From Escherichia coli (GTDB lineage: Bacteria > Pseudomonadota > Gammaproteobacteria > Enterobacterales > Enterobacteriaceae): a stretch of 64,000 nt of DNA. The notes beneath the pieces were generated by a model. It was given only the letters and a program-made list of their open reading frames with translations, made no database searches and was not told the origin of the DNA. A program made the translations under genes and the position numbers. Location: assembly GCF_044324785.1 (NCBI RefSeq), contig NZ_CP172127.1; one strand, given 5' to 3'. Positions within the stretch are counted from its first letter, which is position 1. Every line of letters begins with the position of its first letter. Shown one piece after another: positions 48,580 through 56,314 of this stretch.

Positions 48580-49498
48580 TACGTTATTAACGTTACGCGA
48601 CGTCCATATCAATTTCCCGGCCCGAAAAAACTGGCTTGGTAAAACTACGGAACATGTTCATGCCATCAATGGTATTGATTTACAGATCCGTCGTGGTGAA
48701 ACCTTAGGGATCGTCGGTGAGTCAGGCTGCGGCAAAAGCACCCTCGCACAGCTTTTAATGGGTATGCTGCAACCTAGCCACGGGCAGTACATCCGTTCAG
48801 GATCACAACGCATTATGCAGATGGTGTTTCAGGACCCGCTCTCTTCGCTCAATCCGCGCTTACCGGTGTGGCGCATCATCACAGAACCGCTCTGGATTGC
48901 TAAGCGTAGTAGTGAACAACAGCGGCGAGCGTTGGCAGAGGAGCTGGCTGTGCAGGTGGGTATTCGTCCGGAGTATCTCGACCGCTTGCCTCATGCGTTC
49001 TCTGGCGGGCAGCGGCAACGTATCGCCATTGCCAGAGCACTCTCTTCGCAGCCTGACGTGATTGTGCTTGATGAGCCAACCTCGGCGCTGGATATCTCCG
49101 TGCAGGCGCAGATCCTCAATTTACTGGTAACGCTACAGGAAAATCGCGAGCTGACTTATGTGCTGATTTCACACAATGTCTCGGTGATACGTCATGTGAG
49201 CGATCGGGTGGCGGTGATGTATCTCGGGCAGATTGTGGAACTAGGAGACGCGCAACAGGTGCTAACGGCTCCGGCACATCCGTACACCCGATTATTGCTG
49301 GACTCCCTCCCCGCCATTGATAAACCGCTGGAGGAAGAATGGGCATTACGTAAAACGGATCTACCAGGAAACCGTACGTTGCCACAAGGCTGTTTTTTCC
49401 GCGAACGCTGCCCTCTGGCAACCCACGGATGTGAAGTCCGGCAATCATTAGCAATAAGGGAGGACGGACGTGAGATCCGGTGCTGGCGGGCGCTGTAG
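48572..49498 (+). CDS. ddpF: D,D-dipeptide ABC transporter ATPase DdpF
   Basis: Walker A GESGCGKST, signature FSGGQRQR; ORF opens at 48518 inside ddpD; GTG at 48572 gives the 308-aa product (VSDTLLTLRDVHINF...) I recall for DdpF. Confidence 0.85.
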   Translation: MSDTLLTLRDVHINFPARKNWLGKTTEHVHAINGIDLQIRRGETLGIVGESGCGKSTLAQLLMGMLQPSHGQYIRSGSQRIMQMVFQDPLSSLNPRLPVWRIITEPLWIAKRSSEQQRRALAEELAVQVGIRPEYLDRLPHAFSGGQRQRIAIARALSSQPDVIVLDEPTSALDISVQAQILNLLVTLQENRELTYVLISHNVSVIRHVSDRVAVMYLGQIVELGDAQQVLTAPAHPYTRLLLDSLPAIDKPLEEEWALRKTDLPGNRTLPQGCFFRERCPLATHGCEVRQSLAIREDGREIRCWRAL

Positions 49499-49513
49499 GA
49501 CGCGGCATCCGGC
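49495..49513. repeat. REP-like motif GTAGGACGCGGCATCCGGC at the ddpF-side boundary of the inserted block
   Basis: Overlaps the ddpF stop codon; resembles one arm of an E. coli REP unit; its 12-mer GCGGCATCCGGC recurs (one mismatch) in the palindrome at 56287-56308. Confidence 0.45.
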
Positions 49514-49534
49514 TATTGCATGTCTGCGGAAACG

Positions 49535-50425
49535 TTATGCGTCATAGGTTTTTTTTAACGTTTCCATCAACGCCTGCGCCGCAGTAGAAAGCTTATGGTG
49601 TGACGAACGCAGTACGCCTACTCGTCGCTCAATCACTGGATTATCCAGTTCCAGACACACTGCGCCCAGTTCGCTCATCTGCCTGCGGCACAGCGCAGGC
49701 ACAGCGCTTCCTCCCAAACCGTTTGCCACCAGCCGCCCAACCGTAACCAGTTGATGGCTTTCCAGCGCCACTTCCAGTTGCGTTCCACTTTGTGCCAACT
49801 GCTCCTCCAGCATCAACCTGACGGCTGACGGTCGCTGGAGGGTGATAAAATCGAGCGTCAGCAAATCCCGCCAACTCACGCGTTGCCGATTTGCCAGTCG
49901 TGAATCGGCTGGAACAATAGCGACAAACCGATCCACGCCCAGTGGGGTAAAATGCACATGGCCGCAATAGTCAGGTTCAAAGGCAATACCCATCTCCACA
50001 CGCCCTTCGCTCACCATTTCGATCACCTGCTCATTCACCACATCGTGCACGGTGACATTAATCCCTGAATAACAATCGCGGAAGGTTTTCAGCACCGGAG
50101 GCAGAACGTTGGCTGCAAATGACGGCATCGCTGCCACCGAGACTTTGCCCCGCCTGAGCGTGAATCGCTGACGCATGGCCTCCTCAGTGTTATCCCAGTC
50201 AGCCAGCAAAGGCCGTGCCATCGACAATAGCGTTTCCCCCTCCTGGGTTAATGTCACTTTTCGCGTAGTACGCAGCAGTAAAGCGCCCCCTAAGGCATCT
50301 TCCAGTCCTTTAATGGCAAGACTTAGCGCAGGCTGCGACATATTCAGCCGTTCACTGGCATGGGCAAAGTTCAGAGTGTGAGCTACCGCTAAAAACGCGC
50401 GTAACTGTTTGATGCTCATTTTCAT
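49535..50425 (-). CDS. LysR-family transcriptional regulator, divergent from the catabolic operon
   Basis: 296-aa ORF with N-terminal LysR HTH (...LNMSQPALSLAIKGLE...) and substrate-binding domain; 141-bp AT-rich divergent intergenic region. Confidence 0.85.
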   Translation of the reverse strand: MKMSIKQLRAFLAVAHTLNFAHASERLNMSQPALSLAIKGLEDALGGALLLRTTRKVTLTQEGETLLSMARPLLADWDNTEEAMRQRFTLRRGKVSVAAMPSFAANVLPPVLKTFRDCYSGINVTVHDVVNEQVIEMVSEGRVEMGIAFEPDYCGHVHFTPLGVDRFVAIVPADSRLANRQRVSWRDLLTLDFITLQRPSAVRLMLEEQLAQSGTQLEVALESHQLVTVGRLVANGLGGSAVPALCRRQMSELGAVCLELDNPVIERRVGVLRSSHHKLSTAAQALMETLKKTYDA

Positions 50426-50566
50426 CTGGCACTCCGTTAACCTACTGAATACATTTAATTAACATTATATTGATAAATAATACAAATGAATGAGTCACAA
50501 ATTTAAAATTAACAAATCATTTTTTGCCCTTAATGATGTTGAAAAGGACAACTGGAGGGCAACTGT
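50426..50566. promoter_or_regulatory. Divergent promoter / operator region between the LysR gene and the CoA-transferase operon
   Basis: AT-rich 141-bp spacer with several T-N11-A-type dyads (e.g. around TTAATTAACATTA); layout typical of LysR-controlled operons; inferred. Confidence 0.4.
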
Positions 50567-51274
50567 ATGGCTGGGTTGGATAAACGGGTCGCTACGTATC
50601 ACGAGGCGCTTGAAGGACTTACCAATGAGATGACGATTCTGGCAGGAGGTTTTGGCCTGTGCGGCATCCCGGAGAATCTGATTGCTGAAGTTCGCCACCG
50701 TGGAGTAACCGGATTAACGGTGGTTTCCAATAACTGTGGCGTAGATGGTTTTGGACTGGGTGTACTACTGGAAAGCCGACAGATCCGTAAAGTCGTCGCT
50801 TCTTATGTTGGCGAGAATGCTTTGTTTGAAAAACAGGTGCTTAACGGCGAACTGGAGGCGATTCTCACACCACAAGGAACCCTGGCAGAACAACTGCGCG
50901 CAGGCGGCGCGGGTATCCCGGCGTTCTTTACTGCCACCGGTTACGGTACTCCCGTTGCCGAAGGGAAAGAAGTCCGCGAATTCAACGGTCGCCCGTACAT
51001 CATGGAACAGGCTATCACCGGTGATTTTGCCCTGGTCAAAGGCTGGAAAGCCGACTGGTACGGCAACGTGATTTATCGTCATACCGCGCAAAACTTCAAC
51101 CCACTGATGGCGGCTGCCGGAAAAATCACCGTGGTGGAAGTGGAAGAAATCGTGCCACCTGGTGAACTTGATCCTGCCGCTATCCATACCCCGGGGATTT
51201 TTGTTAATCGCGTCATTCAGGGGCAATTTGAAAAACGCATTGAACAACGCACCCTTAGCCGCAAAGGAGCCTGA
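50567..51274 (+). CDS. 3-oxoacid CoA-transferase subunit A (ScoA/AtoD-like)
   Basis: 235-aa ORF with family-I CoA-transferase alpha-subunit motif (...ASYVGEN...). Confidence 0.85.
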
Positions 51275-55498: not shown

Positions 55499-55509
55499 GG
55501 AAAATCATC

Positions 55510-56280
55510 ATGAATTTACAAGGTAAAACTGCGCTGGTGACGGGCTCCACCAGCGGTATCGGACTCGGTATTGCTCAGACACTGGCAAACGCTGGCGCGC
55601 AAGTGATCCTCAACGGCTTCGGTGATGTTGACGCGGCAATCAATGCGGTTTCTCGTATGGGTAAAACGCCTGGCTATCATGAGGCAGACCTCAGCGATGA
55701 ATCGCAAATTATCAACATGATGGCCTACGCACGGCGGGAATTTGGCGGTGTGGACATTCTGGTGAATAACGCAGGGATCCAGTATGTCTCCCCGGTTGAA
55801 TCTTTCCCTGTAGAAAAATGGAACGCCATTATCGCTATCAATCTCTCTTCTGTCTTTCACACCACGCGTCTGGCACTGCCAGAAATGCGCACTCGTAACT
55901 GGGGTCGGATCATTAACATTGCCTCTGTGCATGGGCTGGTAGCGTCGAAAGACAAATCAGCTTATGTTGCGGCAAAACATGGCGTGGTGGGACTCACAAA
56001 GACCATTGCTCTGGAAACTGCGCAGACGGGTATTACCTGCAACGCGCTCTGCCCTGGCTGGGTGCTGACGCCGCTGGTACAACAGCAGATTGATAAGCGC
56101 ATTGCGCAAGGCGAAGATGCGGAAAGCGCGCGTGACGCCTTACTGGCAGAAAAACAGCCTTCTCGTGAATTTGTGACTCCGCAACAACTGGGTGAACTGG
56201 CGCTGTTTCTCTGTTCGGATGCGGCAGCACAAGTGCGTGGGGTGGCGTGGAATATGGATGGCGGTTGGGTAGCGCAGTAA
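55510..56280 (+). CDS. Short-chain dehydrogenase/reductase, 3-hydroxybutyrate dehydrogenase (BdhA)-like
   Basis: 256-aa ORF with SDR cofactor motif TGSTSGIG, NNAG and catalytic Y-x3-K (YVAAK); begins 11 nt after the permease. Confidence 0.8.
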   Translation: MNLQGKTALVTGSTSGIGLGIAQTLANAGAQVILNGFGDVDAAINAVSRMGKTPGYHEADLSDESQIINMMAYARREFGGVDILVNNAGIQYVSPVESFPVEKWNAIIAINLSSVFHTTRLALPEMRTRNWGRIINIASVHGLVASKDKSAYVAAKHGVVGLTKTIALETAQTGITCNALCPGWVLTPLVQQQIDKRIAQGEDAESARDALLAEKQPSREFVTPQQLGELALFLCSDAAAQVRGVAWNMDGGWVAQ

Positions 56281-56286
56281 GTGTTC

Positions 56287-56308
56287 GCCGGATGACGCGT
56301 CATCCGGC
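56287..56308. repeat. Perfect 22-bp palindrome GCCGGATGACGCGTCATCCGGC (REP-like hairpin / bidirectional terminator) between convergent bdhA-like gene and osmC
   Basis: Perfect inverted repeat read in the sequence 6 nt after the SDR stop and 6 nt before the osmC stop; arm nearly identical to the motif at 49495-49513. Confidence 0.6.
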
Positions 56309-56314
56309 AACGCT

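Follow-up and report, generated by a model that had tools for sequence, protein, structure and literature searches.

A chromosomal operon with a LysR-type regulator between ddpF and osmC of Escherichia coli, probably for 3-hydroxybutyrate and acetoacetate catabolism and probably an ancestral locus that most strains have lost

What is encoded by a segment of the Escherichia coli chromosome that lies between ddpF and osmC in one strain and is missing from K-12, and does the K-12 arrangement represent the original state of the locus or the outcome of a loss? We pursued this question for a window of 64,000 nucleotides (nt) of E. coli (assembly GCF_044324785.1, contig NZ_CP172127.1; all coordinates given here are positions in this window), in which the stop codons of ddpF (49496-49498) and osmC (56315-56317) are 6.8 kb apart and enclose seven intact, tightly packed open reading frames (ORFs). 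The evidence collected suggests that this block is a chromosomal operon under the control of a LysR-type regulator, that it serves the uptake and catabolism of 3-hydroxybutyrate and acetoacetate, and that it is ancestral at the ddpF/osmC site and was lost in most E. coli; we put the probability of this reading at roughly 0.78. The cluster is a conventional catabolic operon of a known kind and is already annotated. The RefSeq annotation of other E. coli strains contains the same seven genes, with the product names LysR regulator, CoA transferase subunits A and B, acetyl-CoA C-acetyltransferase, 3-hydroxyacyl-CoA dehydrogenase family protein, GntP family permease and 3-hydroxybutyrate dehydrogenase.

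The layout of the block had been described in a first-pass annotation of the window, and an ORF list for 47000-58500 returned all seven genes exactly where that annotation had put them (Table 1). Likewise, the spacings it gave for the six operon genes are exact (a 2-nt gap, a 9-nt gap, an 11-nt overlap, a 45-nt gap and an 11-nt gap), the motifs it quoted (SENG, those of the thiolase, a GxGxxG-type motif, TGxxxGxG and YxxxK) are all found in the translated products, and its description of K-12 was accurate, in that ddpF and osmC are convergent neighbours there, separated by a spacer of only 55 nt, with the block absent. Each of the seven genes is preceded by a Shine-Dalgarno-like sequence. An Rfam scan of 48500-58000 gave no match, and none of the seven proteins matched a defence-system model in PADLOC.

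Table 1. Features between the stop codons of ddpF and osmC.
Feature	Position	Strand	Basis or remark
Left boundary 15-mer GACGCGGCATCCGGC, similar to repetitive extragenic palindromic (REP) elements	49499..49513		adjoins the ddpF stop codon; repeated imperfectly, in direct orientation, at 56294-56308
LysR-type regulator, 296 aa	49535..50425	-	divergent from the operon
Divergent control region, 141 nt	50426..50566		conserved boxes and promoter-like site
3-oxoacid CoA-transferase subunit A (ScoA type), 235 aa	50567..51274	+	TIGR02429
3-oxoacid CoA-transferase subunit B (ScoB type), 218 aa	51277..51933	+	TIGR02428, SENG
Acetoacetyl-CoA thiolase (acetyl-CoA C-acetyltransferase), 401 aa	51943..53148	+	TIGR01930
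3HCDH-family NAD dehydrogenase, unnamed subfamily, 307 aa	53138..54061	+	family domains; below curated cut-offs
Secondary transporter, 463 aa, probable 3-hydroxybutyrate importer	54107..55498	+	homologues and predicted fold
Predicted D-3-hydroxybutyrate dehydrogenase (SDR, BdhA type), 256 aa	55510..56280	+	PRK12429, TIGR01963, 5yss
Perfect 22-nt palindrome GCCGGATGACGCGTCATCCGGC	56287..56308		between the bdh and osmC stops; probable two-way terminator

The route that had been proposed for the block, from 3-hydroxybutyrate to acetoacetate, on to acetoacetyl-CoA and finally to two acetyl-CoA, matches the family assignments of three of its enzymes, namely the short-chain dehydrogenase/reductase (SDR), the ScoAB-type CoA-transferase and the thiolase. 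The SDR scores above the cut-offs of two NCBIfam models for 3-hydroxybutyrate dehydrogenase (PRK12429, 371 bits with a cut-off of 258; TIGR01963, 343.5 bits with a cut-off of 307), the solved structure closest to it is 5yss, deposited under the name 3-hydroxybutyrate dehydrogenase (E 1e-146, residues 1-256), followed by 2q2q (1e-116), and it carries the motifs TGSTSGIG (at residue 11), NNAG (86), IAS (137) and YVAAK (152). Judging from this family membership, we predict that it is a D-3-hydroxybutyrate dehydrogenase of the BdhA type. Both transferase subunits pass their models as well (ScoA, TIGR02429, 244.8 bits with a cut-off of 128.5; ScoB, TIGR02428, 327 bits with a cut-off of 243.55), and the SENG motif, the glutamate of which is the catalytic residue in this CoA-transferase family, corresponds to residues 45-48 of the 51277-51933 product. 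ScoA reaches 310 bits with the solved A subunits of succinyl-CoA:3-ketoacid transferases and 175 bits with AtoD of E. coli K-12, which is thus only a distant relative, and it stays below the equivalog cut-off for the E. coli AtoDA acetate CoA-transferase (NF007394, 198.9 bits vs. 315). Since the TIGR models are passed, AtoD is more distant and the AtoD cut-off is not reached, the transferase is ScoAB-like and does not represent a second Ato system; the view that the module is distinct from atoDAEB is borne out. The thiolase reaches 501 bits on TIGR01930 (cut-off 240), its best solved match is 8gqj (613 bits) and its nearest solved relatives are acetoacetyl-CoA thiolases, with VCGSG at residue 87, NEAFA at 318 and GHPIGASG at 349.

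Proceeding from the gene content and the family memberships observed, the biochemical steps, the role of an inducer and the direction of flux would be as follows. The permease would import 3-hydroxybutyrate, and the BdhA-type SDR would oxidise the D-(R) enantiomer to acetoacetate with NAD. The ScoAB-type transferase would then convert acetoacetate to acetoacetyl-CoA, with succinyl-CoA as the likely CoA donor, and the thiolase would split acetoacetyl-CoA into two acetyl-CoA. A further dehydrogenase of the 3-hydroxyacyl-CoA dehydrogenase (3HCDH) family would feed a second substrate, perhaps the (S) enantiomer, into the same funnel, and the divergently encoded LysR protein would probably activate the scoA promoter via conserved AATTAACA boxes when its inducer is present.

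Because classification of the transporter by its sequence gave no match in Pfam, NCBIfam or the PDB, it could be placed solely through aligned homologues and a predicted fold. Of 14 aligned homologues scanned singly, between three and five match GntP_permease (PF02447) and four match CitMHS. Direct comparison with the GntP family yielded a weak BLASTP alignment to K-12 DsdX, a member of that family (27% identity over 102 residues, E 0.002), and an uninformative hhalign profile comparison (probability 1%). An AlphaFold2 model (mean pLDDT 83.8, pTM 0.83) is matched by Foldseek with probability 1.00 to MleN, TRAP SiaQM, VcINDY, YdaH, MtrF and SLC13 proteins, with TM-scores of 0.4-0.66. On this model, the permease would have the elevator-type carrier fold of the ion-transporter superfamily and would be a distant relative of GntP; Pfam does not cover this transporter family. 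It is 93% identical to its counterpart in Citrobacter sedlakii, 89% to that in Klebsiella and 81% to that in Pseudomonas, and one source gives it the name D-beta-hydroxybutyrate permease; it is probably a 3-hydroxybutyrate importer. A 420-nt mosaic patch in the permease gene (54494-54910) holds 15 of the 27 differences that separate the block from that of the carrier strain PCN033. The patch suggests an internal recombination tract derived from a more diverged allele, and hence recombination does occur inside the block.

The LysR protein aligns over its full length with many LysR-family models, its Citrobacter and Klebsiella orthologues carry PF00126 and PF03466, and its gene shows a ratio of nonsynonymous to synonymous divergence (dN/dS) of 0.03 in comparison with a sister Escherichia lineage. 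The protein has 296 residues in the window, in EC1515, in O145:H28, in Citrobacter and in Klebsiella; PCN033 lacks one base at window position 49547, in a G/T run near the 3' end of the gene, and its LysR protein has 303 residues. The control region between the regulator gene and scoA contains two AATTAACA boxes (50457-50464 and 50507-50514) that are 50 nt apart, a dyad ATTAAC-N5-ATT(G/A)AT around 50458-50474, and a promoter-like site composed of a -35 element TTAACA (50509-50514), which one of the boxes overlaps, and a -10 element AATGAT (50532-50537) 17 nt downstream. Stretches of this E. coli region recur in Klebsiella, Serratia, Pluralibacter and Azomonas, a conservation beyond what would be expected of neighbouring intergenic DNA, and a strict T-N11-A dyad scan of the region returned nothing. 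We consider the boxes and the dyad candidate binding sites of the regulator, and it is tempting to speculate that the upstream box with the dyad might serve as recognition site and the box next to the -35 element as activation site. At the other end of the operon, the palindrome GCCGGATGACGCGTCATCCGGC has a predicted folding energy of -24.3 kcal/mol (z-score -6.0) and is not followed by a run of T residues; it probably terminates both convergent transcripts, i.e. those of bdh and osmC.

With respect to the origin of the block, its distribution is informative. It is present in 231 of 5426 complete E. coli genomes (~4%), with O145:H28 Shiga-toxin strains and PCN033 among the carriers, and is absent from ~96%, K-12 included; all copies in these genomes are chromosomal. 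We surveyed the wider context by scanning one genome per species and then searching the recovered loci with the seven proteins by tblastn. The complete seven-gene set occupies the same ddpF/osmC site in a separate species-level lineage of Escherichia (L012, the sister lineage referred to above) and in many Citrobacter species, and it is found at other chromosomal sites in Klebsiella, Serratia, Phytobacter, Pluralibacter and Azomonas. Beyond this shared synteny, the block has diverged to the same degree as its surroundings: nucleotide identity to the sister lineage is 90-94% for the block and 87-93% for the flanks (both about 91%), with synonymous divergence (dS) of 0.25-0.43 and 0.34-0.59, respectively, and in comparison with Citrobacter the corresponding identities are 75-83% and 73-85% for nucleotides and 80-95% and 78-95% for amino acids. 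All seven genes are under purifying selection, as follows from dN/dS values of 0.025-0.12 vs. the sister lineage. The GC content of the block had been judged by eye to be slightly above that of the flanking genes; in fact it is 0.535, compared with 0.54 for ddpD/ddpF, and exceeds only that of osmC (0.49) and of the AT-rich stretch beyond. Consistently, GC at third codon positions is 0.51-0.59 in the block and 0.55-0.56 in ddpD/ddpF, so that there is no anomaly of composition. A scan of 40000-64000 yielded no tRNA gene, and between ddpF and osmC there are only the seven metabolic and regulatory genes, with no integrase or mobility gene. Spread on plasmids was considered and rejected for lack of an E. 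coli-type copy in PLSDB, where the few full-length matches are ~73% identical Klebsiella records, some of them chromosome-sized. Given the flank-like divergence, the normal GC content and the lack of tRNA and mobility genes, vertical inheritance followed by loss is the best reading, i.e. a locus that would be ancestral to Escherichia and Citrobacter at ddpF/osmC, has apparently disappeared from most E. coli by deletion and survives as a presence allele of low frequency and low diversity. The block is thus better read as an ancestral locus which most E. coli have lost than as an insertion with raised GC content.

Three states of the locus can be distinguished among the complete genomes, that is, the ddp operon with the block (231 genomes), the ddp operon with a short spacer (4048 genomes), and neither ddp nor block (about 1100 genomes by subtraction, with dosP beside osmC in one inspected example). 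Independent deletions are seen here. In E. coli Ecol_AZ162 (L092) dosP directly adjoins osmC and the whole ddpXABCDF operon is missing, and in BEC1-S17-ESBL-07 (L093) a deletion extends from inside the permease gene to maeA and has removed bdh, osmC, bdm and sra. In K-12, homology to the window ends with the stop codon of ddpF, 34 unrelated bases replace the block, and what is kept of the palindrome is its 3' half (56294-56308), which constitutes the right boundary repeat. These 34 nt have no match in the window, and a simple deletion between the two 15-nt repeats, which we tried, does not reproduce the K-12 junction; the junction alone therefore gives no direction of the event.

The 3HCDH-family protein is the member of the operon that deserves closest inspection. 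It possesses both family domains, a GAGLMG motif and the conserved NTS, HFW-H, VE and GNR positions, which are the catalytic residues of the family. Against the model for 3-hydroxybutyryl-CoA dehydrogenase (Hbd), PRK05808, it scores 181 bits with a cut-off of 408, and it remains far below the cut-offs of all other Hbd, PaaH and FadB models; the scores with the L-carnitine dehydrogenase models PRK07066 and PRK07531 are 112 bits (cut-off 414) and 142 bits (cut-off 592). The top models are those for FHMPC dehydrogenase (220 bits vs. a cut-off of 500) and PRK06129. When homologues from ten loci were scored, eight ranked FHMPC dehydrogenase first and one PRK06129, most of them with the Hbd models well below, and the exception is a 38% identical homologue (L085) for which PaaH- and Hbd-type models come out on top. 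A library with clustering at 50% identity offers no full-length relative outside the enterobacterial group nearer than 41-49%, and the subfamily therefore appears rather isolated. The structural comparison points in the same direction as the profiles: (i) FHMPC dehydrogenase 4om8, which is also the best sequence match, ranks first (score 32.8, 293 residues aligned), followed by rabbit L-gulonate 3-dehydrogenase/lambda-crystallin 3ado (30.3, 287), the 3-hydroxybutyryl-CoA dehydrogenase 9fbd (29.8, 254) and the probable 3-hydroxybutyryl-CoA dehydrogenase 3mog (28.3, 248); (ii) the extra aligned length with 4om8 and 3ado corresponds to a C-terminal extension common to these two and the protein considered here; and (iii) the protein shares with 4om8 a PPH motif and a lengthened loop (GRRYAMVGP; GYKIAVIGP in 4om8), where Hbd has NPAP and the shorter GANHPMGP. 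The names of the two closest structures indicate that they act on non-CoA substrates. They are, however, only 28-31% identical to the protein in the structural alignments, and their contexts are the catabolism of vitamin B6 and of sugar acids, vs. 3-hydroxybutyrate catabolism for the present gene. The designation as a protein of the 3-hydroxyacyl-CoA dehydrogenase family holds for the fold and does not extend to a standard Hbd, because the protein fails the Hbd and carnitine dehydrogenase models and resembles enzymes with non-CoA substrates.

Gene context links this dehydrogenase to 3-hydroxybutyrate beyond the Enterobacteriaceae. Pseudomonas oryzihabitans, P. luteola and Halotalea share a rearranged order of 3HCDH gene, intervening gene, permease, bdh, scoA, scoB and thiolase, the intervening gene being a sigma-54 activator in a Pfam-annotated Pseudomonas locus; several Paraburkholderia have the 3HCDH gene, the permease and bdh within the fetched flank; and in a metagenomic pair a 49% identical 3HCDH homologue is directly followed by a 67% identical permease. 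Because of these cross-genus contexts, the gene can be regarded as a recurrent member of proteobacterial 3-hydroxybutyrate clusters. Homologues below about 40% identity occur in other contexts and were not used as evidence; among homologues below 45% identity that were set aside, one in Planococcus has a LacI regulator, a HisD-like enzyme and a generic SDR nearby, which looks like another pathway, and a homologue adjoining isocitrate lyase (P0129) is uninformative. The enzyme most likely brings a further substrate into the same pathway, and our guess is that this substrate is (S)-3-hydroxybutyrate, either as the free acid or after activation with CoA. Members of the 3HCDH family are specific for the L-(S) configuration. 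Given that specificity, the D-specificity of BdhA and the fact that the gene travels with the permease, a role with the L-(S) enantiomer is favoured. The BdhA enzyme of P. putida has been described as (R)-specific. Since the profile and structural evidence leans towards the free acid over the CoA ester, it is conceivable, if at present a tentative proposal, that an unnamed subfamily acts on the free acid and that the operon oxidises both enantiomers of 3-hydroxybutyrate to acetoacetate, with the SDR acting on the D and the 3HCDH-type enzyme on the L form. Our literature searches turned up no study of a bacterial L-3-hydroxybutyrate dehydrogenase.

Several observations weigh against the reading we prefer, and they have to be considered together with the alternatives to which they lend themselves. 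On the functional side, the thiolase reaches 677.9 bits on the acetoacetyl-CoA thiolase subfamily model PRK05656 and is thereby ten bits short of the cut-off of 688, the LysR protein is above no equivalog cut-off, and a simple route for D-3-hydroxybutyrate has no need of the 3HCDH-family gene. The pathway could be as we favour it and the 3HCDH-family enzyme nevertheless be an ordinary (S)-3-hydroxybutyryl-CoA dehydrogenase, with L-3-hydroxybutyrate first activated with CoA and then oxidised to acetoacetyl-CoA. The fold and the conserved catalytic positions would fit, solved Hbd enzymes match well (E about 1e-39), the start of the gene overlaps the thiolase gene by 11 nt, and a 41% identical homologue in Megasphaera adjoins a fused CoA-transferase; the neighbours that were checked there include no called BdhA-type gene. 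In addition, Sinorhizobium reportedly uses L-3-hydroxybutyrate via CoA activation. As detailed above, however, the Hbd cut-off is missed by a wide distance (181 vs. 408 bits), the homologues from nine of the ten loci, with L085 as the exception, have FHMPC dehydrogenase or PRK06129 on top, and the loop is that of 4om8 and not of Hbd; moreover, ScoAB-type transferases are not known to activate 3-hydroxybutyrate. We therefore regard an ordinary Hbd as possible, though doubtful. A different substrate altogether is suggested by P. aeruginosa, in which a homologous LysR-controlled transferase has been named dehydrocarnitine CoA-transferase, is induced by 3-dehydrocarnitine and is listed in the carnitine route. 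By analogy, the 3HCDH-family enzyme would oxidise L-carnitine to 3-dehydrocarnitine, for which the transferase and the thiolase would follow, and carnitine dehydrogenases do belong to the 3HCDH family, if as weak matches here. Yet, since the carnitine dehydrogenase models fail and neither a beta-keto-acid cleavage enzyme nor betaine genes are present in or beside the block, we consider catabolism of carnitine very unlikely; the block contains instead a bona fide 3-hydroxybutyrate dehydrogenase and the type of permease that accompanies bdhA in Pseudomonas, and a paper on carnitine in Citrobacter amalonaticus implicates FadIJ and a cleavage enzyme, i.e. genes other than this cluster. Finally, all four reactions are in principle reversible, and a thiolase and a 3HCDH enzyme start butyrate-type fermentation, so that thiolase, reductase and transferase might operate in the synthetic direction and make 3-hydroxybutyrate for export as a fermentation or redox sink. 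Such a direction appears extremely improbable, as the cluster is built like catabolic 3-hydroxybutyrate loci, with permease, BdhA and divergent activator, it contains neither a crotonase nor a butyryl-CoA dehydrogenase, and assimilation of DL-3-hydroxybutyrate is a recognised trait of relatives such as Klebsiella and Raoultella.

On the evolutionary side, only one of the GTDB species representatives of Escherichia carried the gene, so that vertical descent needs several independent losses, and the diversity of the block among E. coli strains is 2-5 times lower than that of the flanks. In a comparison of four carriers, differences amount to 0.35-1.25% in the block (49499-56293) and to 1.6-3.5% in the 3-kb flanks (46495-49498 and 56294-59314), with sharp steps at the edges. 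None of the 5426 complete genomes is closer to the window than 98.3-98.9%, yet 215 of them have the block at an identity of 99% or more. These figures, along with the small proportion of carriers and the imperfect 15-nt direct repeat that flanks the block, could be taken to mean that a genomic islet was recently acquired from another genus at ddpF/osmC and that K-12 has kept the original empty site. An acquisition of this kind is improbable in view of the shared gene set and location in the sister Escherichia lineage and in numerous Citrobacter species, of divergence, dS included, that equals that of the flanks, of a GC content equal to that of ddp, and of the lack of an integrase or tRNA gene beside the block and of a plasmid copy in E. 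coli. The low diversity within the species may then mean that the presence allele is rare, finds partners for recombination only among other carriers and so coalesces recently, while the flanks recombine population-wide; homologous recombination that recently carried the block from one E. coli lineage to another also fits, since it would look identical. We thus retain ancestry with loss as the best account of the locus.

Some further observations were made in and around the window. The ddp flank (46495-49498, ddpC to ddpF) is unusually diverse among carriers (up to 3.4% over 3 kb), and the last 500 nt of ddpF alone contain 17-33 differences between carrier strains. On the far side of osmC, the alignment with K-12 breaks at 60611-61001, between adhP and fdnI and near yddM. 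An ORF of 120 aa is located there at 60611-60973; Citrobacter has a HigB-like toxin and an antitoxin at this position, and other E. coli a frameshifted RelE/ParE toxin, so the window may keep an intact toxin-antitoxin pair near yddM that was lost in K-12. In Klebsiella pneumoniae (L010, positions 3434-14450 of that locus), the cluster has as immediate neighbours a LysR gene and the genes of an acetolactate decarboxylase, a thiamine pyrophosphate enzyme and an SDR, which we read as the acetoin/2,3-butanediol genes budRABC, so that two C4 modules are adjacent. The cluster of Citrobacter amalonaticus (L057) seems to be partly degraded, as the thiolase gave no match that survived filtering and the bdh-like match reaches only 57% identity vs. 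80-96% for its neighbours.

How does the operon relate to systems already described? The orthologous clusters of the Citrobacter freundii complex, Klebsiella pneumoniae, Serratia, Phytobacter, Pluralibacter and Azomonas are identical in order and content, with proteins 57-98% identical, and judging by the sizes of sequence clusters they look common in those taxa, compared with 4% in E. coli. These clusters are annotated, and we found no characterisation of them; literature searches yielded no paper on the cluster in E. coli, Citrobacter or Klebsiella. The suggestion that the module is uncharacterised thus stands for E. coli and requires amendment for Pseudomonas, from which the related sets dhcR-dhcAB-atoB and bdhA with PA2004 have been described. 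The closest described system is PA1998-PA2005 of P. aeruginosa (dhcR-dhcAB-atoB-atoE, bdhA, PA2004 and the regulator PA2005). There, the LysR protein DhcR controls dhcAB-atoB, bdhA and PA2004 depend on an enhancer-binding protein together with RpoN, and a preprint considers PA2004, a transporter of the H+/gluconate symporter family, a putative 3-hydroxybutyrate importer alongside BdhA. The E. coli block is alike in that a LysR regulator probably controls a two-subunit CoA-transferase and a thiolase, and its permease, bdh and scoAB products are 61-81% identical to those of P. oryzihabitans and P. luteola. In contrast, Pseudomonas has two separately regulated modules, one depending on LysR and one on sigma-54, where the E. 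coli block forms a single LysR-controlled operon; atoE is part of the P. aeruginosa locus and has no counterpart in the E. coli block; and the Pseudomonas transferase is named for carnitine catabolism. The 3HCDH-family gene is an extra member in the E. coli block, which P. oryzihabitans and P. luteola also have. PAO1 presumably lacks such a gene. The atoDAEB operon of K-12 likewise combines a two-subunit family-I CoA-transferase with an acetoacetyl-CoA thiolase and acts on acetoacetate. The ato system, however, uses acetyl-CoA as donor, has AtoE as transporter, is controlled by AtoSC and contains no 3-hydroxybutyrate dehydrogenase.

If the operon is functional, about 4% of E. coli would be able to grow on 3-hydroxybutyrate, for which K-12 lacks such a dehydrogenase. 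Since 3-hydroxybutyrate is a host ketone body, the operon could contribute to niche determination in a small way and offer a simple phenotypic marker; a preprint reports 3-hydroxybutyrate in injured mouse lungs and in ventilated patients, and assimilation of the DL compound is already used to tell Klebsiella from Raoultella. The locus also provides a caution for genome scans, because a segment missing from K-12 need not be an insertion, and here the K-12 state would be the derived one, brought about by deletion. Finally, if the 3HCDH-family enzyme does act on the free acid, the operon would constitute a free-acid route for L-3-hydroxybutyrate, beside the CoA-activation route that is said to operate in Sinorhizobium. 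The main interest of this otherwise conventional operon may be seen in that enzyme and in how carrier strains grow on D- and on L-3-hydroxybutyrate.

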